The notes under the pieces were generated by a model that was not told where the DNA came from, did no database searches, and was given only the letters and a program-made list of their open reading frames with translations. A DNA stretch of 64,000 nucleotides from Candidatus Dormibacteria bacterium (GTDB taxonomy: Bacteria; Chloroflexota; Dormibacteria; Aeolococcales; Bog-877), in contig JBJKSO010000115.1 in NCBI GenBank assembly GCA_046703825.1, positions 1,890 to 65,889 on the forward strand, in the 5' to 3' direction. Positions 3,333-12,785 of the stretch are shown here, in pieces. Positions within the stretch are counted from its first letter, which is position 1, and each line of letters starts with the position of its first letter. Position numbers and translations under genes: made by a program.

Positions 3333-3923
3333 TTGGCTGTGGTCGTTCTCTTCCACTCGGTCCTGGGTCTGAGACCCGGCGTCCTGCAGGGTGCGGAACG
3401 CCTGCGCGCCGCCGGGCACGAGGTGCACACCCCCGACCGCTACCAGGGACAAGCTCCCTTTGATTCGTACGAGGACGCCGTCGCCTTCGAGAGAGCGATC
3501 GGCCTCCCTGAACTCATCGCACGCTCGGAGCGATCCGTGTCCGATCTGCCCGAGCGGGCGGTGTATGGCGGGTGGTCTGCCGGGGGCGCCTTGGCGGAGC
3601 ACTTCGCACTGACGCGGAGCGGCGCCGCTGGCTTGGTGCTGATCGCAGCGGCCGCCCGGCTGAGCTGGTTCAACGCCGCCGCGTGGCCCGCTGCAGTCCC
3701 GGTCCAGGTGCATTACGCGACCGAAGACCCGTTCCGCGAGGAGGAGGAGCTCCGGGGCTTCCTGGGAAGCGTCCGCGAGGCAAACGCACGGCTCGACTTC
3801 CGCGAGTACGCGCTCAGTGGCCACCTCTTCGACGATCCCTCCCTGCCGGCCGAGTACAGCGCACCCGCCGCCGAGCTGATGTGGCGGAGGATCCTGGAGT
3901 TTCTGCAAGGGCTGGAGCCCTAG
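3333..3923 (+). CDS. dienelactone hydrolase family (alpha/beta hydrolase) protein
   Basis: 196 aa; nucleophile-elbow-like GWSAGG; overall DLH-like layout. Confidence 0.6.
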   Translation: MAVVVLFHSVLGLRPGVLQGAERLRAAGHEVHTPDRYQGQAPFDSYEDAVAFERAIGLPELIARSERSVSDLPERAVYGGWSAGGALAEHFALTRSGAAGLVLIAAAARLSWFNAAAWPAAVPVQVHYATEDPFREEEELRGFLGSVREANARLDFREYALSGHLFDDPSLPAEYSAPAAELMWRRILEFLQGLEP

Positions 3924-3939
3924 GCGCCGGCCGGCCGCG

Positions 3940-5253
3940 TCAGGGGCTCAGTCGTTCCCTGCAGGCCGCCTCGAGGTGGTCCAGCCCGACTCTGATCTGC
4001 GCCGTGGTGTCGCGGTCGCGGATCGTCACCGCGTGGTCCTCCAGGCTCTGGTAGTCGACCGTGACCGCCACCGGAGTGCCAATCTCATCCTGCCGCCGGT
4101 AGCGGCGCCCGATCGACTGGGTCTCGTCGTACTCGGTGGCAAAGTGGGCCCTCAGATCTGTCTCGACCCGGTGCGCCAGTTCGACCAGGTCGGGCTTCTT
4201 GAACAGCGGCAGCACGGCCACCTGGAAAGGGGCAACCCTTGGACTGAGCCGCAGAACCACGCGCTGCTCCCCACCCACCTCGTCCTCGTCGTAGGCGTCG
4301 AGAAGCACGGCCAGGAAGGTCCGGTCCACCCCCGCCGATGGCTCCACCACGTAAGGCAGGAAACGCTCCCCGCTGACTGGGTCGGTGTATTGCAGGTCGC
4401 GGCCGCTGACCTCCTGATGCCGACGCAGGTCATAGTCGCCGCGGCGGGCTATCCCCTCCAGTTCACCCCAGCCCCAGGGGTAGCGGTACTCGATGTCAGT
4501 CGAGGCCAGCGCGTAGTGGGCCTTCTCGTCCTCCCCGTGCGGGCGCAGGCGCAGGTTCTCCGAGCGGATACCCAGCGAGCGGTGCCAGTCGACTCTCCGA
4601 TCGCACCAGTACTCGAACCAGCGGACATCGTCGCCGGGGGAGCAGAACCACTCGAGCTCCATCATCTCCAGCTCGCGCAGGCGGAAGATGAAGTTGCCGG
4701 TGGAGATCTCGTTGCGGAAACTGCGCCCGATCTGCGCGATGCCGAAGGGCACCCGCCGGCGCGAGCTGGTCAAAACGTTCTTGAAGTTGACGAAGATCCC
4801 CTGCGCTGTCTCCGGGCGCAGGTAGACCACCGAACCCTCGTCCTCCACAGGGCCCATGAAAGTCTTGAACATGAGGTTGAACTGGCGGGCGGCGCTGAGA
4901 GCGCCGCCACAGTTGGGGCAGCGATCACCGTGCAGCTGGTCGGCCCGCCATCGCTGGTGGCAGGGCCCAAGGCAGTCCACCAACGGGTCACTGAAGTTCT
5001 GCAGGTGCCCCGAGGCCTGCCAGACCATGGGATTCATCAGGATGGCCGCCTCCACCCCCTCGACGTCGTCGCGGAGCTCCACCGTCTCTCGCCACCAGAG
5101 ATCCCGGATGCGTCGGCGCAGCCGGACCCCCAGCGGACCGAAGTCGAAGACGGCGTTGATGCCCCCGTAAATCTCGCTGCTCGGGTAGACGTAGCCCCGA
5201 CGCTTGCACAGGGAGACGAGCGTCTCCATGAGGTTGTTCTTGGGAACCGGCAC
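3940..5253 (-). CDS. glyQS: glycine--tRNA ligase (class II, dimeric GlyQS type)
   Basis: N-terminus LVSLCKRRGYVYPSSEIYGG and further GlyRS motifs. GTG start at 5253 with GGAGG 9 nt upstream. Confidence 0.9.
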   Translation of the reverse strand: MPVPKNNLMETLVSLCKRRGYVYPSSEIYGGINAVFDFGPLGVRLRRRIRDLWWRETVELRDDVEGVEAAILMNPMVWQASGHLQNFSDPLVDCLGPCHQRWRADQLHGDRCPNCGGALSAARQFNLMFKTFMGPVEDEGSVVYLRPETAQGIFVNFKNVLTSSRRRVPFGIAQIGRSFRNEISTGNFIFRLRELEMMELEWFCSPGDDVRWFEYWCDRRVDWHRSLGIRSENLRLRPHGEDEKAHYALASTDIEYRYPWGWGELEGIARRGDYDLRRHQEVSGRDLQYTDPVSGERFLPYVVEPSAGVDRTFLAVLLDAYDEDEVGGEQRVVLRLSPRVAPFQVAVLPLFKKPDLVELAHRVETDLRAHFATEYDETQSIGRRYRRQDEIGTPVAVTVDYQSLEDHAVTIRDRDTTAQIRVGLDHLEAACRERLSP

Positions 5254-5312
5254 CTACACCTCCAGCGGTCCCGCCAGGGTTCGCCGGGGACCTCGGTTCA
5301 CTTCAGGTCGGC

Positions 5313-6002
5313 TCATTGTATTGGTGCCGCCAGCCCACCAGCATCGAGCCCCCGCTCGCCCTCGGCGGTGATCAGGCGCGCTCCACCGGCCCCCCTCACG
5401 GTCCAGCTGGTGCCGTCCCAGCAAACGCCGGTCCTTTCGTCGACGGCGAGCACGGGCAGGCCGAGGCCGGAAAGCCGGCCCCGCCAGCTGCCGCCCCAGG
5501 TATCCCAGTGCGGTGCCAGCGCCACGCCCGCCACCAGGCCCAACCCCGGCCGGGTTCGGAATCCGTCCCCGGGCAGAAGACAGTGTTCGACCAGCGCCAT
5601 CGCCCCGGCGCTCGACCCGGCCAGGGGCACTCCCCGCCGGAAAAGCGTCCCCAGGCATTCCGCCGCGGGCGAGCCCAACAGCACCTCCAGCAGCCACCCC
5701 GGGTCGCCTCCAGCCAGGTAGACGGCGCCGGCGCCTTCAAGCTGAGCTAGCAGCGCCGGGCGGGCGGCGTCGGCCGGTCGAAGCAGCCAACAGGGCTCCA
5801 GCTCGGCCCCAATGGTCGCGAAGTAGCTGCGCGCCAGATTGACCGCCGCCTCGGGATGGTCCCGATTGGCGGTGGGCAGCAGCGTCACCCGAGGCGAGCG
5901 GGCGCGGGCCAGCCACCAGGAGTCAGCTGCCTCTCCGCCGGGGAGAAACTCGCTCCCCCCGACCAGCATCAGAGTCGTCTGCAGCTCAGCTGGAGCGGAC
6001 AT
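5313..6002 (-). CDS. peptidase S51 / cyanophycinase-like (class I glutamine amidotransferase-like) protein
   Basis: LMLVGGSEF... with AGSSAGAMAL serine-nucleophile motif. Confidence 0.55.
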   Translation of the reverse strand: MSAPAELQTTLMLVGGSEFLPGGEAADSWWLARARSPRVTLLPTANRDHPEAAVNLARSYFATIGAELEPCWLLRPADAARPALLAQLEGAGAVYLAGGDPGWLLEVLLGSPAAECLGTLFRRGVPLAGSSAGAMALVEHCLLPGDGFRTRPGLGLVAGVALAPHWDTWGGSWRGRLSGLGLPVLAVDERTGVCWDGTSWTVRGAGGARLITAEGERGLDAGGLAAPIQ

Positions 6003-6030
6003 GCACGGACCAAGCCCTTAGCATCGAGCG

Positions 6031-8193
6031 GTGAGGCTCTACGACACCCTGGCGCGCCAGGTGCGCGAGTTGGTGCCACAGACGCCGGGGCGCCTGGGCA
6101 TGTACAGCTGCGGACCAACCGTCTACCGCTCGGTGCACATTGGCAATTTACGCACCTATCTGCTGGCGGACTGGATAAAGCGCACCGCCCAGGCCGAGGG
6201 CCTCGAGGTCCGCCACGTGAAGAACATCACCGATGTTGGCCACATGCGCCAGGAAGCGGCCGAGCGCGGCGGCGACAAGGTGATCGCTGCGGCGCTGGCG
6301 GCGGGCAAGTCTCCGGCGGAGATCGCCCGCCAGTTTGAGAGTGAGTTCCATGAGGCGGAACAGCTTCTGGGTATCATCCCCGCCGACGTATTCCCCCGCG
6401 CGACGGACCACATCTCACCGATGCTGGAGCTGGTTGAGCGGCTGCTCAAGCGGGATGCCGCCTACGTAGTCGACGGGACGGTCTACTTCGACACCGGAGC
6501 GCATCCCGGCTACGGCCGGCTCTCCGGCAACTCGCTGGACGAGCTGTCCGGGGCAGCGGCCGCCGAGACCGACCCGGGCAAGCGCCGCCCCAGCGACTTC
6601 ACGCTCTGGCGCAGCGCGGAGGCCGGAAGGCAGCTGATGGTCTGGGACAGCCCCTTCGGCCGTGGCTTCCCGGGTTGGCACATCGAGTGCTCGGCCATGT
6701 CCATGGCTTACTTGGGCGAGGAGTTCGACCTGCACACCGGAGGTGTTGACAACATCTTCCCCCACCACGAGGACGAGCTGGCCCAGAGCCAAGCCGCCAC
6801 CGGTCGGGCTTTCGCCCGCCACTGGGTCCACGGCCAGCACCTGCTGGCGGATGGGGTCAAGATGGCCAAATCTCAAGGCAACGTCTACACGCTCGATGAC
6901 CTGGTCCGGCGGGGGTTCGACCCGCTGGCCTTCCGGCTGCTCTGCGCCACCGTGGGGTACCGGGCGCGGCTCAACTTCACCCTGGCCTCGCTTGCCGGTG
7001 CCGAGCGTGCCCTGCAGCGGCTGCGGCGCCGCGCCTGCGACGACGGAGGCAGCCTGGACGAGGCCGCCGTCCAAGGGCTGCGGGACAGCTGTCAGGAGCG
7101 CCTCAGCGACAACCTCGACCTTCCCGGTGCGCTGGCGCGGATCTGGCGGTTCGCCAACGACCGCGGCCGAAGCGGCCGCACACGCCGGGCGGCGCTCCTG
7201 AGCGTAGACGTCCTGCTGGGCCTGGGACTGGATCGCCCGCCGACCAGGGAGCCGCGGGACGGCGCCTGGACGGCCGCCGCGCGCCAGCGGGAGGAGGCGC
7301 GGCGAGCTGGCAAATACTCCAGTGCCGACGCTTGCCGCCCTGAGCTGCTCCACTTGGGGGTGGTGCCAGAGGATTCAAAGGAGGAGACCCACTACCGCAA
7401 GGCGACCGCCCTCGACCATAGGCGCGGGCTGATCTCGTCGCCATTGGAGGTTTTGGATCAGCGCTTCCAGCCAGACTTGTGCGAAGTCTCGGTGTCGCTG
7501 GTGGTTTCCGGTTACCCAGCCGATGTCGACCGTTGCCTGCGCGCCCTGGAGGCACACCGTGGCCACCACCGGGTGGAGGTCCTGGCGGTGGATAACGACG
7601 CCGACCCCCAGACCAGCGACGTGCTCCGGTTTTGGGCGGAACGGGTCCCTTCGGTCCGGGTGTTTCGAGCCGACCACCGCCTGGGGGAGGCTGCCGCCCG
7701 CAACGTGACGCTGAGAGCCGCCCGGGGAACGGTCCTCTTGCTCTTGGACACGGGGGTAGAAGCCTCTGGCCCCTGGGTGCAGCCCCTACTCCAAGCGCTC
7801 CGCGACCCGCTGACGGGAGCCGCGGGCCGCTGGGGGGCGCGCACCACGGACCTGCGCGAGTTCTTCGACTCTGACGCTCTCGAGGTCGACGCCATCGACG
7901 GCTACTGCCTGGGCCTTCGCCGCGAGCGGCTGCGCCAGCTCGGCTTTCTCGACGAGCGGTTTCGCTTCTACCGCCTGCTCGACTTCGACCTCAGCATGAG
8001 CCTGCGAGCGGCCGGGCTCATTAACCGGCGATACCCCGAGCTGCCCTTCGTAATGCACGAGCACCGCGGCTGGGAGGAATCCGAGCCCGAGGAGAGGGAG
8101 CGGCTGAGTCGCTTGAACTTCCGCCGCTTCTACGATCGCTGGCACCACCGCCAAGACCTGCTCCTGGCCAAAGGGGCCGCCGACCGCAGCTGA
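6031..8193 (+). CDS. cysS: cysteine--tRNA ligase with C-terminal family-2 glycosyltransferase-like domain (fusion)
   Basis: HIGN (HIGH) and KMAKS (KMSKS) motifs; full CysRS including anticodon-binding region to about aa 460. An extra ~260 aa follows with GT-A/GT2 hallmarks (VSLVVSGYP...VLAVDNDAD..., ...GFLDERFRFYRLLDFDLSMSLRAAG). Single uninterrupted frame. Confidence 0.8.
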   Translation: MRLYDTLARQVRELVPQTPGRLGMYSCGPTVYRSVHIGNLRTYLLADWIKRTAQAEGLEVRHVKNITDVGHMRQEAAERGGDKVIAAALAAGKSPAEIARQFESEFHEAEQLLGIIPADVFPRATDHISPMLELVERLLKRDAAYVVDGTVYFDTGAHPGYGRLSGNSLDELSGAAAAETDPGKRRPSDFTLWRSAEAGRQLMVWDSPFGRGFPGWHIECSAMSMAYLGEEFDLHTGGVDNIFPHHEDELAQSQAATGRAFARHWVHGQHLLADGVKMAKSQGNVYTLDDLVRRGFDPLAFRLLCATVGYRARLNFTLASLAGAERALQRLRRRACDDGGSLDEAAVQGLRDSCQERLSDNLDLPGALARIWRFANDRGRSGRTRRAALLSVDVLLGLGLDRPPTREPRDGAWTAAARQREEARRAGKYSSADACRPELLHLGVVPEDSKEETHYRKATALDHRRGLISSPLEVLDQRFQPDLCEVSVSLVVSGYPADVDRCLRALEAHRGHHRVEVLAVDNDADPQTSDVLRFWAERVPSVRVFRADHRLGEAAARNVTLRAARGTVLLLLDTGVEASGPWVQPLLQALRDPLTGAAGRWGARTTDLREFFDSDALEVDAIDGYCLGLRRERLRQLGFLDERFRFYRLLDFDLSMSLRAAGLINRRYPELPFVMHEHRGWEESEPEERERLSRLNFRRFYDRWHHRQDLLLAKGAADRS

Positions 8194-8200
8194 GGGCGGT

Positions 8201-8953
8201 TCAGGCCGGCGAGTGCAGCTGGTGCAAGATGCGGGCGGCACGGAGCCGGCGGTCCAGATGGTGCTCGAGGTGGGCTAACAGGATCGACTCCAATTCGTCC
8301 CGCAGCGTGGCAGTCCAGCGCAGCCGCCGCAGCGTCCCTTCATCCCCCACGTCCATGCGCCGCAGCACTCTCAGCGCCGCCGCCGAGCAGGGCAGACCGT
8401 TGGGGGGGCGGCACGCTTCGCCCTGAACCACCCCACCCAGGGCGGTATCGAACCAGCTGTCCCGGTCCCGCAGTCCGCCGCCGCAGCCGGCGCAGTGGTT
8501 TACCTCCGGTCGGTAGCCGCCTACCGCCGCCAGGCGGAAGGCGGCCAGACAAAGCTCCGCCCGACAGTCCGAGCCGGCTACCGCCATCCGGTCTCTGGCC
8601 TCCGCCACCAGGAAGTAGAGCTCGGGGTCGGGGTGAAACTCCTCCAGAGTGGCATCGACCAGCTCCGCCAGCACTGCCCCGCAGGCGGTGCGGAGCGCGT
8701 CGTCAACCGGCCAGGGTGGGCCCAAGGGCCGGGCCTGGCCCAGGTGCCCGAGGCCGCGGCCGGGTGTCAGCTGCAGCTCGGTGCGGGTCAGCAGGTCCAG
8801 GCCGGCCGCGGCGCGGGATTTGGCTCTTCGCGCTCCCCGGGCGAGCACGCTGAGTTTGCCGTGATCACGGGTGAAGACGACCAGAATCCGGTCGGCGTCG
8901 TTGAACGCCCGCCGCCGGAGCACCAGCCCCTCGTCGACGAAGCTGGCCGGCAA
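8201..8953 (-). CDS. recO: DNA repair protein RecO
   Basis: N-terminal OB fold EGLVLRRRAFNDADRILVVFT; Cys cluster CAGCGGG; 250 aa. Confidence 0.8.
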   Translation of the reverse strand: MPASFVDEGLVLRRRAFNDADRILVVFTRDHGKLSVLARGARRAKSRAAAGLDLLTRTELQLTPGRGLGHLGQARPLGPPWPVDDALRTACGAVLAELVDATLEEFHPDPELYFLVAEARDRMAVAGSDCRAELCLAAFRLAAVGGYRPEVNHCAGCGGGLRDRDSWFDTALGGVVQGEACRPPNGLPCSAAALRVLRRMDVGDEGTLRRLRWTATLRDELESILLAHLEHHLDRRLRAARILHQLHSPA

Positions 8954-8957
8954 TGAC

Positions 8958-10286
8958 CTAGGGCTCGCGCGGCGGCTGGCTGGCGCTCTCGGTGGCCAGG
9001 CTGGGCTCGGGGTCGGAAACCTCCTCGGTCTCGAAGGGGCGGTCGCGCAGCATGCGGAGAGTCCGGATGGCGTTGCGGTCGACGGACTGGACGGTGATGG
9101 ACACCCCGTCGGCGAGGTCGACTCGGTCCCCCGCTACCGGGATTCGGCCCAGTTGAGCGTACACGAGCCCGCCCACCGAGTCGAAGTCCTCGCCCTCGAG
9201 ATTGAGATGGAGAAGGTCGTTGACGTCATCCAAACTCACCGACCCGCTGAGCATCGCTTCATTGGGCGCCACCAGCTGGATTTCCTCCTGCTCGGCCACG
9301 TCGTACTCGTCGCGGATGGGCCCGACGATCTCTTCCAAAACATCCTCGATCGTGGCCAACCCCGCCGTCCCACCGTACTCGTCAACGACGATCGCCAGGT
9401 GGGTCTTGGCCAGCTGCATCTCGGCCAACAGCTCACCGAGACGCTTGGCCTCGGGAACAAAGAACGGCGGGCGCGAGATGTCACTCACGGTGGCCGGGGC
9501 CGGCCCCCGGCCACCCCGGGCTCGCAAGAGATCCTTGGCGTACACCACCCCGGTGATGTTGTCCACGGTCTCCTGGTAGACAGGTATGCGGCTGTGCCCG
9601 TGCTCCAAGACCTCGCTGACCGCCTCGTCGATGGTGGCTGCGTTCGGCAGCGCCGCCATCTGCACCCTGGGGACCATCACCTCGCGCACCGGCTTGTCGG
9701 TCATCTCCAACACGCCGTGGATCATGTCCCGCTCCTCCTCCTCCACCACCCCCTCGCGCTCACTGGCGACCACCAGCTCCTTGAGCTCGCCCTCGGTCAG
9801 GAACGGACCCCGCACCGCGCGCCCCGGGAGAACCCCGGAGAGCACTGACGTCACCGCGGTCAGCACCCGGACCAGCGGCCCGAGCAGCATGCTGGCCACC
9901 GCGACCGGGCGCGCCATGAACCGTGCCACCGGCAGGGTGTGCTGCAAGGCGTACGACTTGGGACCGATCTCGCAAAGCAGCAGCACCAGCCCTGCCAGGG
10001 CAACCGCCGACCACAGACCAGCGCCAGCCCCGAACTCTTGGGCTGCCAGGAGGGTGGCCGCGGAAGACGCCACGATCAGAGCCAGGGTGTTTACCGCCAG
10101 GATCGTGCCCAAGTAGGACGAGGGCCGGCTGTGCAAGTGCTCGATCAGGGCCGCCTTCTGGTCGCCCTCCAGGCGACGGGCGCGCAGCTTGATCCGGCTG
10201 ACCGAGGTCAGCGAGGTCTCGGCGATGGCGGATAAGGCGGCCAGGAGCAGCGAGGCCACCAGCAGGACTAGAAGCCAGGCGATCAC
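8958..10286 (-). CDS. hemolysin-family / CNNM (DUF21-CBS-CorC_HlyC) divalent cation transport protein
   Basis: N-terminal 4-TM DUF21, tandem CBS domains, C-terminal CorC_HlyC. Confidence 0.85.
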   Translation of the reverse strand: MIAWLLVLLVASLLLAALSAIAETSLTSVSRIKLRARRLEGDQKAALIEHLHSRPSSYLGTILAVNTLALIVASSAATLLAAQEFGAGAGLWSAVALAGLVLLLCEIGPKSYALQHTLPVARFMARPVAVASMLLGPLVRVLTAVTSVLSGVLPGRAVRGPFLTEGELKELVVASEREGVVEEEERDMIHGVLEMTDKPVREVMVPRVQMAALPNAATIDEAVSEVLEHGHSRIPVYQETVDNITGVVYAKDLLRARGGRGPAPATVSDISRPPFFVPEAKRLGELLAEMQLAKTHLAIVVDEYGGTAGLATIEDVLEEIVGPIRDEYDVAEQEEIQLVAPNEAMLSGSVSLDDVNDLLHLNLEGEDFDSVGGLVYAQLGRIPVAGDRVDLADGVSITVQSVDRNAIRTLRMLRDRPFETEEVSDPEPSLATESASQPPREP

Positions 10287-10458
10287 GGGTCAGAGCGGCG
10301 GCTGCCGTTCCTCAGGTTGCCTCTGGGGGCGATCACGTCGGGGACGGCACTAGCCTCCACTTGGTGCGGGCGGCGGCCATCCGCTTGCTAATCGGCCCGG
10401 TTTATGGGTAGGTGCACCAGGGCCCATCTCGGTGGTCGAGTCTAGCAGGCGGCCTCGC

Positions 10459-11388
10459 TCATCGAAACAGGGCTGAGACGCTGCGAGCCTCGTGCACCCG
10501 CACGATCGCCTCCGCGATCAGGGGCGCCACCGACACCTGGCTGACCTTGGGGCTGCGCAGTACCTCGTCGGGGAGACGGATGCTGTCGGTGACCACCAAA
10601 TCGTCGATCGGAGAGTCCATGAGACGGCTGACCGAGTCGTTGCTGAGCACGGCGTGGGTGGCGATGACATCGACCGAGGCCGCCCCGTTCTGCTTGAGGG
10701 CGTTGGCGGCGCCGACCAGGGTCGACCCGGTGGACACCAAATCGTCGATCACGACGCACCTGCTGTCATTGACGTCACCGATGACATGCAGCACCTCTAT
10801 GTCGTCGTTCCTTGGGCGGCGCTTGTCGATGATGGCCAGGGGCGAGTCCAGCCGGCGGGCGATGGCTCGCGCCCGGGCCGTGCCTCCGACGTCTGGGGAG
10901 ACGACGACTATGGGCTGGCGCGCGTGCCGGGAGCGGACGTGCGAGGCCAAGATTTTGTTGGCCGTAAGCGCGTCCACCGGGATGTCGAAGAATCCCTGTA
11001 TGGCCTCGGCATGCAGGTCGAGCACGATGAGCCGCTCAGCTCCCGCCTGCTGTAGGAAGTTGGCCATGAGCTTGGCGGAGATCGGGTCGCGAGCCTGGGT
11101 CTTCTTCTCCTTGCGCTGGTAGCCGTAGTACGGCAGGACCGCGTTGATCCGGGCCGCGCTGGCACGTCGCAGCGCGTCCAGGATGATGAACAGCTCCATG
11201 TAGTTCTCGTTCACGGGGGGCGAGGTCGGCTGGATCAGAAAGACATCGTGGCCCCGCACCGACTCGCCGATCTTCACGTCGAACTCGCCGTCGGCGAAGC
11301 GGTCGACCTGCATGGGCGCCAGCGGGACTCCCACCTCCTCGGCGATCCGCTGTCCCAGCTCCGGGTTGGCGGTCCCGGAGAGCAGCAT
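10459..11388 (-). CDS. prs: ribose-phosphate pyrophosphokinase
   Basis: MLLSGTANPELGQRIAEEVG...; PRPP-binding loop VIDDLVSTGSTL. Alternative TTG at 11412 overlaps the glmU stop. Confidence 0.9.
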   Translation of the reverse strand: MLLSGTANPELGQRIAEEVGVPLAPMQVDRFADGEFDVKIGESVRGHDVFLIQPTSPPVNENYMELFIILDALRRASAARINAVLPYYGYQRKEKKTQARDPISAKLMANFLQQAGAERLIVLDLHAEAIQGFFDIPVDALTANKILASHVRSRHARQPIVVVSPDVGGTARARAIARRLDSPLAIIDKRRPRNDDIEVLHVIGDVNDSRCVVIDDLVSTGSTLVGAANALKQNGAASVDVIATHAVLSNDSVSRLMDSPIDDLVVTDSIRLPDEVLRSPKVSQVSVAPLIAEAIVRVHEARSVSALFR

Positions 11389-11408
11389 CAGCGGCCCCTC
11401 GGCACCCC

Positions 11409-12785
11409 TCAAGATCCACCCTCTGCGGGGTCACGGCGCCGCCGGCGCACCCAATCCATGACGTTGCGCTGCCGGGCGCGAGAGACGGCCAGCGCTCCCG
11501 GGGGGACATCAGCGGTGATCACCGAACCAGCGCCCGTGTAGGCTCCGGAGCCAACCCTGGTCGGGGCCACCAGAACGGTGTTGCTGCCGATGCGGGCACC
11601 GCTCTCGACCACGGTCCGGTGCTTGTCTCGCCCGTCCCAGTTGGCGGTGATCGTTCCAGCCCCGATGTTGACGTCCTCTCCCAGGTCCGCGTCCCCGATG
11701 TAGCTGAGGTGGGGAACTTGGCTACCCGCCCCTACGTAGGAGCGCACCACCTCGGTAAAGGTGCCCAGATGACTCTGGGCAGCCATCTCAGTCCCCGCCC
11801 GGAGGCGATTGAAGGGGCCAATGTCCACGCCGTCAGCCAGCTTACAGGCGACCAAGTGGGCTCGGCTGATCCGGCATCCGTCTCCCACGACGGCATTCTC
11901 CAGTTCGGCAAAGGGTCCCAGATGGCAGGCTCGGCCAATCCTGGTCCCCCCTCGGAGGACCGTGCCCGGTTCTAGGACCGTGTCCTGGCCGACTTCGACA
12001 TCGCAATCCACCCAGGTCGACCCCGGGTCGACCACGGTGACGCCGGCGTGCATCAGGCGCAGCAGCGTCCGCCGACGCAACAGGGCCTCCGCCTGTGCCA
12101 GCTGCACCCGATCGTTGACCTGCTGAGCGTCATCGGCGGTCACCTCCACGGTATCGACGCCCGTCGGCATCCGGGCCGGGGCCCAGCTCAGATAGCGCTC
12201 CCCTTGTGCGTTTCCATCCCCCAGCGTCTCCAGGACCGGCCAGAGGTCTGGCAAACGGAAGCAGTAAGCCCCGGCATTGACCTCGGCCGGTTGCCCGTCC
12301 CAGGGTTCATCCGCCTCTTCCACGATGCCCACCAGCTCACCGCGGTCGTCGCGGCGGATTCGGCCGTAGCCGCGAGCGTCGCGGACTCTGGCCACCGCAA
12401 CCACTGCCCCGGCGGTCCCGCTGGCGGCTCTTCGCGCCAGGAGATCCAGCGCGCTGCCGCCCAAAAGCGGCATGTCTGCCGGCAGCACCAGCACCTCCGG
12501 GCTGTTGTCCAGCAGCGAGCGGGCGGCCAGGAGCGCATCCCCGGTGCCGCCCTGACGCTCCTGGATTGCGATCTCGGCACGCCCATCCAACTCCGCGCGC
12601 ACCGACTCGTGCTTAGCGGCGACTACCACGATTGGGCGGTCGGTGAGCGAGGACGCACTGCGCAGAGAGTGCTCCAGGAGAGTCAGCCCGCCGCAGCGGT
12701 GGAGCACCTTGGGTAGCTGCGAGTTCATCCGGGTGCCCTTTCCGGCCGCGAGGATCACCACGCGCGCACGAATGCGTTCTGACAA
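11409..12785 (-). CDS. glmU: bifunctional UDP-N-acetylglucosamine pyrophosphorylase / glucosamine-1-phosphate N-acetyltransferase
   Basis: N-terminus VVILAAGKGTRM and C-terminal left-handed beta-helix hexapeptide repeats; classic glmU-prs pairing. Confidence 0.9.
   Translation of the reverse strand: MSERIRARVVILAAGKGTRMNSQLPKVLHRCGGLTLLEHSLRSASSLTDRPIVVVAAKHESVRAELDGRAEIAIQERQGGTGDALLAARSLLDNSPEVLVLPADMPLLGGSALDLLARRAASGTAGAVVAVARVRDARGYGRIRRDDRGELVGIVEEADEPWDGQPAEVNAGAYCFRLPDLWPVLETLGDGNAQGERYLSWAPARMPTGVDTVEVTADDAQQVNDRVQLAQAEALLRRRTLLRLMHAGVTVVDPGSTWVDCDVEVGQDTVLEPGTVLRGGTRIGRACHLGPFAELENAVVGDGCRISRAHLVACKLADGVDIGPFNRLRAGTEMAAQSHLGTFTEVVRSYVGAGSQVPHLSYIGDADLGEDVNIGAGTITANWDGRDKHRTVVESGARIGSNTVLVAPTRVGSGAYTGAGSVITADVPPGALAVSRARQRNVMDWVRRRRRDPAEGGS

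Follow-up and report, generated by a model that had tools for sequence, protein, structure and literature searches.

An aminoacyl-tRNA synthetase (aaRS) gene that runs on, without a stop codon, into a second enzyme-like domain raises two questions: whether the joint is real and, if so, what the added domain does. The case considered here is a gene on a 64,000-nucleotide stretch of a Candidatus Dormibacteria genome (GenBank assembly GCA_046703825.1, contig JBJKSO010000115.1, positions 1,890 to 65,889 of the forward strand; hereafter, the window), in which a cysteinyl-tRNA synthetase (CysRS) continues in frame into a GT2-like glycosyltransferase (GT) domain of the GT-A fold. The joint is no artefact: the fusion is ancient and has been passed on vertically as a single unit. 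Its product is tentatively read, at somewhat below even chances, as a bifunctional polypeptide that would combine a housekeeping CysRS with a probably active, soluble, inverting, metal-dependent GT, the two sites being independent and the fusion serving co-expression or co-localization.

The gene (6031..8193, plus strand) is a single open reading frame (ORF) of 720 amino acids (aa) with a GTG start, a TGA stop and no internal in-frame stop, and was identified as a cysteine--tRNA ligase joined to a GT-A/GT2-like domain from Pfam, NCBIfam and full-length homologs. The class I catalytic core of CysRS (aa 16-323; 6076..6999) matches PF01406 at 297.6 bits in a Pfam scan, aligns to Escherichia coli CysRS (1li5) and contains the class I motifs HIGN (aa 36-39; 6136-6147) and KMAKS (aa 277-281; 6859-6873). 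It is followed by the helical anticodon-binding bundle (aa ~324-415; 7000..7275), delimited by the span of TIGR00435 and the alignment to 1li5, and by the CysS_C mini-domain, the C-terminal anticodon-binding alpha/beta module (aa ~416-457; 7276..7401). The latter matches PF23493 over aa 418-456 at 22.4 bits, slightly under the cut-off of 23; the same family is annotated in many fused homologs and exceeds the cut-off in two relatives (P0123 and P0140). A conserved linker with an 'SSxxEV' motif that includes S469 (aa 458-485; 7402..7485), recognized from the homolog alignment and AlphaFold2 (AF2) models, leads into the GT domain (aa ~486-712; 7486..8166), which is delineated by PF00535, AF2, Foldseek and PDB profile matches. 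PF00535 (Glycos_transf_2) matches aa 497-620 of the whole protein at 50.1 bits and the C-terminal part alone at 52.4 bits, both against a cut-off of 23.3. A preliminary description, made from the sequence alone, had proposed a full-length CysRS with HIGN, KMAKS and an anticodon-binding region that runs on in frame into a GT-A/GT2 domain, and this layout holds at every point.

Whether the joint is real can be judged from the relatives of the gene. At least 120 protein clusters, drawn from NCBI, ENA, JGI and Logan assemblies in a search space of 5.8 billion proteins, share the PF01406 plus PF00535 architecture at lengths of 690-770 aa, with 100-46% identity and 96-100% coverage of the query; both domains are present in all of the 120 best clusters, and those with a named source come from Candidatus Dormibacterota, Chloroflexota and Dehalococcoidia. 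In an alignment of 20 sequences, the junction (aa ~450-490) runs collinear with Dormibacterota homologs and is free of indels. When one genome per GTDB species was scanned with a profile of the GT domain, a relative was found in 268 genomes, and the counts of loci by architecture given here refer to the 80 best loci of that scan. These loci, from Dormibacterota, Dehalococcoidia and SAR202, comprise 63 complete in-frame CysRS-GT fusions, 3 that are cut by contig ends and 14 without any CysRS core. Across the 63 fusions (1953 pairs), the pairwise identities of the CysRS core and the GT domain, with means of 0.60 and 0.50, respectively, are correlated (r = 0.943), indicating that the two halves diverged together as one inherited unit.

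The same data bear on the possibility, raised in the preliminary description, that adjacent cysS and GT genes were joined artificially, through loss of a stop codon, through a frameshift or through misassembly. All that speaks for such an artefact is the general prior of these errors in contigs of metagenome-assembled genomes (MAGs) and the fragmentation by frameshifts of a single related locus (L088), which lies on a long-read contig. It is opposed by the collinear, in-frame junction seen in 63 independent genomes, each representing a species, and in at least 120 protein clusters, by the conservation of linker residue S469 (invariant in the 20-homolog alignment and present in 62/65 fused proteins) and by coding statistics that are even over the junction, the GC content of third codon positions being 0.87 in the CysRS core, 0.83 in CysS_C and the linker and 0.84 in the GT part. 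Because the same frame is kept across hundreds of assemblies made independently of one another, an error of base calling or assembly at the junction is untenable, and an artefactual origin of any of these kinds is regarded as next to impossible.

Two observations concern the quality of individual records. On L088, a 133-kb long-read contig (ENA ERZ25039541 contig_19497), the gene calls are broken into short ORFs throughout, and a stand-alone gene for CysS_C plus GT is split into pieces of 105 aa and 159 aa, which looks like uncorrected frameshift errors and not biology. Separately, some contigs or proteins with family members of the Dormibacteria or Chloroflexota type (L024, L025, L084, P0021 and P0052) carry odd record labels (Candidatus Acidiferrales, Candidatus Micrarchaeia archaeon, Steroidobacteraceae, Nanopelagicaceae or Verrucomicrobiae), probably because the contigs were mis-binned or the MAGs mislabelled.

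What kind of synthetase precedes the GT domain? The N-terminal half passes TIGR00435, the cysS equivalog model, at 362.4 bits (cut-off, 340), with aa 1-457 covering model positions 1-465 of 466, and fails TIGR03447, the MshC model (241.2 bits versus a cut-off of 485.1). Residues 2-457 align to residues 3-460 of the 461 residues of E. coli CysRS (PDB 1LI5/1U0B), whereas the MshC structures (3C8Z and 8HFM) match aa 1-399 only, at 189 bits. Among 20 homologs, no variation is seen at C27, HIGN, W216, C220, H245, E249 or KMAKS, and C27, C220, H245, E249 and W216 line up with the zinc/cysteine-site residues of 1li5 (C28, C209, H234, E238 and W205 in E. coli numbering). In CysS_C, D433, R436 and D448 are conserved in 79/79 sequences of a set of 65 fused and 14 stand-alone proteins, R420 in 78 and R424 in 76; by alignment, R420, R424, D433, R436 and D448 are the equivalents of E. 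coli R423, R427, D436, R439 and D451, which presumably take part in anticodon recognition, as in the 1U0B structure. The CysRS half is thus of the canonical cysS type, not MshC, and has every catalytic, zinc/cysteine-binding and anticodon-binding element of a canonical CysRS. When this half alone served as the query, all 120 best relatives were fused proteins or contig-edge fragments, as expected of a single, vertically inherited housekeeping cysS; no second cysS was found within the 64-kb window, and the fused gene is probably the sole cysS copy.

The CysRS core also contains an insertion, 'TDVGHMRQE..ERGGDKV' (aa 68-83), behind the first strand-helix unit of the Rossmann fold, and HIGN replaces HIGH. 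The insertion, which is common to the CysRS structures 6UJD and 3SP1 and absent in E. coli CysRS, marks the core as one of the second of the sequence types known for bacterial CysRS.

The nature of the CysRS half bears on a pathway of low-molecular-weight thiols, the function first put forward for the fusion, in which the GT would make a glycoside that the CysRS core would cysteinylate via Cys-AMP, in the manner of MshC. CysRS and MshC are homologous, as the match over aa 1-399 attests, fusions often join steps of one pathway as a general principle, and to our knowledge the thiol used by Dormibacteria and Dehalococcoidia has not been established. However, the CysRS half passes the cysS model, fails that of MshC (241 versus 485) and keeps the whole anticodon-binding apparatus; the thiol-pathway glycosyltransferases MshA and BshA are GT-B/GT4 enzymes, whereas the domain found here is GT-A/GT2; and the family loci have no deacetylase (MshB/BshB-like) or other partner from a thiol pathway as a conserved neighbour. 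Moreover, the GT family persists without the CysRS catalytic core, as described below, and in the fusions it is attached at the anticodon end, which would be remote from the Cys-AMP site. An MshC-like coupling of glycoside synthesis to cysteinylation is therefore not supported, and a thiol pathway of this kind is considered very improbable.

What, then, is the second half? From an alignment of 15 sequences, AF2 gave a confident model of aa 462-720 (predicted local distance difference test, pLDDT, 91.7; predicted template modelling score, pTM, 0.90), which displays the alternating beta/alpha order of the GT-A fold. The linker is modelled with pLDDT values of 82-96 in the GT-only model and 81-93 in a model of CysS_C plus GT, and is predicted to pack against the GT domain. 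Foldseek comparison with the PDB gave 510 matches at E <= 0.001, and the top 50 listed were all glycosyltransferases, led by polypeptide GalNAc-transferases (GT27; E, 1e-13; query-normalized TM score, 0.76) with bacterial GT2 enzymes next in line; the solved GTs among these matches are only 13-20% identical to the domain. A PDB profile search matched 2z87, the GT-A prototype chondroitin polymerase, and 6p61, a 228-aa glycosyltransferase that matched over the whole domain. As the best NCBIfam match, MftF, reached 58 bits, far below its cut-off of 280, the GT half represents a distinct, uncharacterised GT2-like subfamily that is not assignable to a characterised GT family.

No hydrophobic segment was found in the protein (maximum KD19, 0.94), and with a median pI of 5.4 and a net charge of about -10 the GT domain is acidic, which argues for a soluble domain and not a generic nucleic-acid or membrane binder. 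On the same grounds, and given the net charge of about +1 of the helix itself, a membrane- or RNA-binding role was rejected for the conserved C-terminal helix of the family ('EERExLSxxNFxRF..RW'; aa 686-704). Strong purifying selection acts on the GT half, a GT-A domain that is soluble and acidic.

A group of giant proteins (1100-4400 aa; P0181, P0189-P0191, P0195, P0257 and others) match the N-terminal half of the GT domain at 25-33% identity, in 4-7 separate stretches each; they appear to be tandem GT2 arrays.

Whether the domain could still catalyse glycosyl transfer was assessed against the core motifs of GT-A enzymes, namely, DxD, the xED-Asp, the G-loop and the C-His (PMC7185993), in the 79 fused and stand-alone sequences. 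The xED-Asp equivalent, D651 (7981-7983), aligns with the Asp of 'GGED' in 2z87 and is invariant (79/79). Among the 65 fused proteins, N558, G596, G599 and H678 are present in all, D573, E577, G602 and H676 in 64 and D521 in 61. G596, G599, G602, H676 and H678 are likewise found in 14/14 stand-alone proteins; judged by position in the order of secondary-structure elements, G596/G599/G602 would form the G-loop, and H676 or H678, in H676-E-H678-R-G-W681 (8056-8073), would be the probable C-His. A canonical DxD is absent. Its equivalent is a family motif, D-x-[S/G]-[V/I/L]-E, here D573-T-G-V-E577 (7747-7761), in which the third DxD position is S in 36, G in 27, A in 1 and H in 1 of the fused homologs, and E577 (also present in 13/14 stand-alone proteins) may stand in for the second Asp. 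The preliminary description had likewise pointed to an atypical DTG in place of DxD and to a C-terminal motif typical of GT2 enzymes; both are borne out, as 'LLLLDTGVE' and GFLDERFRFYRLLDFDLSMSLRAAG, respectively. Further features of the domain are R501-C502, V-D521-N522, D548-H549, N558, D620, Y625, R631 and F-R645-F-Y647-R648, and the motifs 'R-C' (aa 501-502), 'ADH', 'F-R-F-Y-R-x-L-D' and 'H-E-H-R-G-W' are specific to this family.

The GT domain is not confined to fusions. A HMMER search with the GT part returned 65 representative clusters at E <= 1e-30 and, besides fusions and N-truncated fragments, two more architectures. The first consists of CysS_C, the same linker and the GT domain in proteins of about 305-345 aa (Limnocylindria and Ktedonobacteria). 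At L004/L057, L005 and L006, such proteins are encoded by genuine genes, each with a start of its own that is preceded by intergenic DNA, and 13 further such loci, several of them labelled Candidatus Limnocylindria, form a syntenic set. L006 encodes WP_220194942.1, located on a 4.4-Mb contig of the isolate Ktedonospora formicarum and annotated only as 'glycosyltransferase family 2 protein'. The second architecture is the GT domain alone (about 228-260 aa), likewise encoded by real internal genes; the proposition that the GT is always tethered to CysS_C was rejected on this account. In a rough neighbour-joining tree (no outgroup, no resampling), several detached forms fall inside the fused clade, and a second clade mixes CysS_C plus GT and GT-only forms. 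Because the CysS_C segment can derive only from a CysRS, repeated fission or truncation is suggested as the origin of the detached forms. A 60-aa CysS_C query, used to look for a separate CysS_C in the cysS genes of the stand-alone lineages, gave 3 candidates, the one match being a fragment on a frameshifted contig.

Individual detached copies differ in other respects. The L006 copy is partly degenerate, with 'YRSQQYMD' instead of 'FRFYRNLD' and no 'HRGW'. At the same locus (BNJF01000001.1), the gene (10001-10990) lies 248 nt downstream of one for a ManC-like sugar-1-phosphate nucleotidyltransferase (8671-9753), a neighbour that was seen only once, and MurJ and LytR-CpsA-Psr genes are also in the neighbourhood. 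At L004 (JACPWV010000076.1, a Chloroflexi groundwater MAG), the CysS_C plus GT gene (1843-2805) lies 29 nt downstream of a FemAB-family gene (744-1814) on the same strand; a link to this family of aminoacyl-tRNA-dependent transferases was rejected as a recurrent association, as tblastn found no homolog in the window or at the other loci. An ORF of 365 aa downstream of the gene at L001, which has no Pfam hit and whose product, judging by its sequence, is probably repeat-rich and secreted, is unrelated to FemAB.

The detached forms matter for function, and they are among the points that weigh against a catalytic reading of the domain. In the 14 stand-alone proteins, the donor side is eroded (D521 is replaced by Ala in 10/14 and N558 by Thr in 8/14, and D548/H549 are variable), which suggests that glycosyl transfer may not be what the family is selected for. 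Further points of this kind are the missing second Asp of DxD (D573-T-G/S); the differing contexts of distant fusions, among which no conserved operon partner was found; the absence, at fused, stand-alone and GT-only loci alike, of any conserved neighbour that hints at a donor or an acceptor; and the lack of experimental data on any family member in the full-text literature.

Several of these points would be accounted for if the domain were a non-catalytic appendage, that is, a pseudo-glycosyltransferase or a sensor of a ligand such as a nucleotide-sugar or a nucleotide, that regulates, stabilizes, oligomerizes or localizes CysRS. All members have a degenerate form (D-T-G/S) of the canonical DxD, and no pathway partners were found near the loci. 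The detached members that lose the donor side keep an invariant C-terminal half (D620, Y625, R631, R645/Y647/R648, D651, H676/H678/R679 and the C-terminal helix), which suggests that a binding surface is the shared constraint. There is also a precedent for inactive GT-A scaffolds in COSMC, an inactive GT31 protein that acts as a chaperone (PMC7185993). However, DxD and xED are both gone from COSMC, whereas every sequence of the present set retains the xED-Asp, and D521, N558, D573, E577, the G-loop glycines, D651 and H676/H678 are essentially invariant in the 65 fused proteins, a degree of constraint over class-level divergence that exceeds the usual needs of a scaffold. A non-catalytic role, which the preliminary description had named as its second option in the form of a regulatory appendage, is accordingly considered unlikely, though a serious contender.

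The frequent retention of CysS_C by the detached forms could point in a different direction, toward tRNA. Were CysS_C to steer the GT to tRNA-Cys, a nucleotide of the anticodon arm might be glycosylated or another component of the complex acted on. The GT directly follows CysS_C; detached GTs often keep CysS_C, with R420, R424, D433, R436 and D448 invariant in all 14 stand-alone proteins; the two are modelled as a confident unit (pLDDT, 90.3; pTM, 0.81), which is no proof of a fixed orientation; and glycosyltransferases of tRNA anticodon nucleosides, QTGAL/B3GNTL1 and QTMAN, exist in animals (PMC11755703). Conversely, genuine GT-only genes without CysS_C imply that the tether is dispensable, the stand-alone CysS_C plus GT proteins are the very ones in which donor-binding residues are lost, and the acidic GT domain with its not strongly basic C-terminal helix is unlike typical RNA-binding modules. 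No tRNA-Cys gene was found near any locus, and we know of no glycosylated nucleoside in bacterial tRNA-Cys. A tRNA-directed function in this broad sense is improbable, and a shade more improbable still is its specific version, in which a tRNA-Cys-directed glycosyltransferase held by CysS_C would add a sugar to an anticodon-arm nucleotide or to another component of the complex. If the latter were true, it would give bacteria their first tRNA glycosylation system and would be the first case of an aaRS that carries a tRNA-modifying glycosyltransferase of its own.

The bifunctional reading thus remains the preferred one, and it can be spelled out as follows. The N-terminal part would charge tRNA-Cys as usual, and the C-terminal part would be an active, inverting, metal-dependent glycosyltransferase. 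A nucleotide-sugar would be bound through D521/N558; the metal would be held by D573, by E577 (in place of the second Asp of DxD) and by H676 or H678; and D651, the xED-Asp, would deprotonate the acceptor, predicted to be a soluble cytoplasmic molecule or macromolecule and not a membrane lipid. By analogy with the E. coli CysRS-tRNA structure (1U0B), the GT would hang off CysS_C at the anticodon end, far from the aminoacylation pocket, and for that reason the two active sites are probably independent. The fusion would then probably serve stoichiometric co-expression, or co-localization with the CysRS/tRNA-Cys complex, and not substrate channelling.

The genomic setting is that of a housekeeping gene. 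The window has a GC content of ~68%, and Dormibacteria, which are sister to, or a class of, Chloroflexota, have a median GC content of 66.9% (PMC10608941). The closest homologs, which are ~70% identical, and synteny of the locus with a 2.39-Mb Dormibacterota contig (L002) assign the window to Dormibacteria. All flanking genes lie on the minus strand: a class II aaRS of the glycyl type (GlyRS; 3940..5253) and an S51 peptidase-like gene (5313..6002) on one side and RecO (8201..8953), a CNNM/CBS/CorC protein (8958..10286) and phosphoribosyl pyrophosphate synthetase (10459..11412) on the other. A single tRNA-Ala was the sole RNA element that Rfam detected in the window, where no T-box or riboswitch was found. 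Elsewhere in the family, the stand-alone loci share neighbours (a rhomboid-like protein, a DLH hydrolase and a Pot-type ABC transporter) by lineage synteny only, and the contexts of GT-only genes are miscellaneous.

The gene is tightly packed among its neighbours. Its start and that of the divergent S51 peptidase-like gene are separated by 28 bp (6003-6030), so that promoters and ribosome-binding sites must overlap or sit in the neighbouring coding sequences, unless a start was miscalled. The ends of the fused gene and the convergent RecO gene are 7 nt apart (8193-8201), and a conventional intrinsic terminator does not fit between them. Across 3572-11412, spurious ORFs of up to 581 aa (e.g., 3976..5721, plus strand) run over the real genes in other frames and on other strands, a consequence of the ~68% GC content; ORF lists for the window need a filter based on homology or on codon-position GC.

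No description of a CysRS-GT fusion was found in the full-text literature, including surveys of aaRSs, a coverage outside of which most subscription journals lie. The database names of the fused proteins among the records found, 'cysteine--tRNA ligase' or 'cysteinyl-tRNA synthetase' and, in one case, 'hypothetical protein', hide the second domain. Housekeeping bacterial aaRSs rarely carry whole extra enzyme domains, and this fusion spans Dormibacteria, Dehalococcoidia (with SAR202) and other Chloroflexota, a whole radiation at class level whose members abound in soil and sea and have hardly been cultured. With its unusual D-x-x-x-E in place of DxD, the appended domain delimits a GT-A subfamily that is apparently unstudied; its role would add a non-canonical function or a regulatory link to an essential translation enzyme, and it could reveal a connection between sugar-nucleotide metabolism and cysteine decoding, or even bacterial tRNA glycosylation.

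Set beside known systems, the fused protein resembles several in part. MshC (TIGR03447; 3C8Z and 8HFM) has a homologous class I core, and both proteins are tied to cysteine and sugar chemistry; unlike the window protein, MshC lacks the anticodon-binding C-terminal region, and mycothiol-type partners were not found near the window gene, which fails the MshC model. The mycobacterial LysX, a lysyl-tRNA synthetase (LysRS) fused to an MprF-type lysyl-phosphatidylglycerol synthase, is another bacterial aaRS that is covalently joined to a second enzyme-like domain, a likeness in principle only. The partner in LysX uses aminoacyl-tRNA from a dedicated second LysRS copy, whereas the partner here, a GT-A domain that by PF00535 and Foldseek is not of an aminoacyl-tRNA-dependent transferase family, has no known aminoacyl-tRNA chemistry, is attached at the anticodon end and follows what is apparently the housekeeping synthetase. 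QTGAL (B3GNTL1) and QTMAN (GTDC1), which act on queuosine-34 of tRNA-Tyr and tRNA-Asp in animals (PMC11755703), are, likened by description only, a precedent for a glycosyltransferase that acts on an anticodon-loop nucleoside of a specific tRNA; unlike the protein described here, they are eukaryotic and not fused to a synthetase, and tRNA-Cys has no queuosine. Canonical CysRS, represented by the E. coli enzyme (1LI5/1U0B), is matched end to end by aa 1-457, including the zinc/cysteine site, the HIGH-type and KMSKS motifs, the helical bundle and CysS_C; the window protein differs from it in the 'TDVGH...' insertion (as in 6ujd and 3sp1), in HIGN for HIGH and in ~260 additional C-terminal residues that form the GT-A domain. 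Finally, these added residues share with GT2 and GT27 GT-A enzymes (K4CP, 2Z87; a Leptospira GT, 6P61; ppGalNAc-T2, 2FFU/6NQT) the fold, the PF00535 score, the conserved xED-Asp and, judged by position, the G-loop glycines and a C-terminal His, and are set apart from them by D-x-[S/G]-[V/I/L]-E in place of DxD, by motifs of their own and by an identity of 13-20%.

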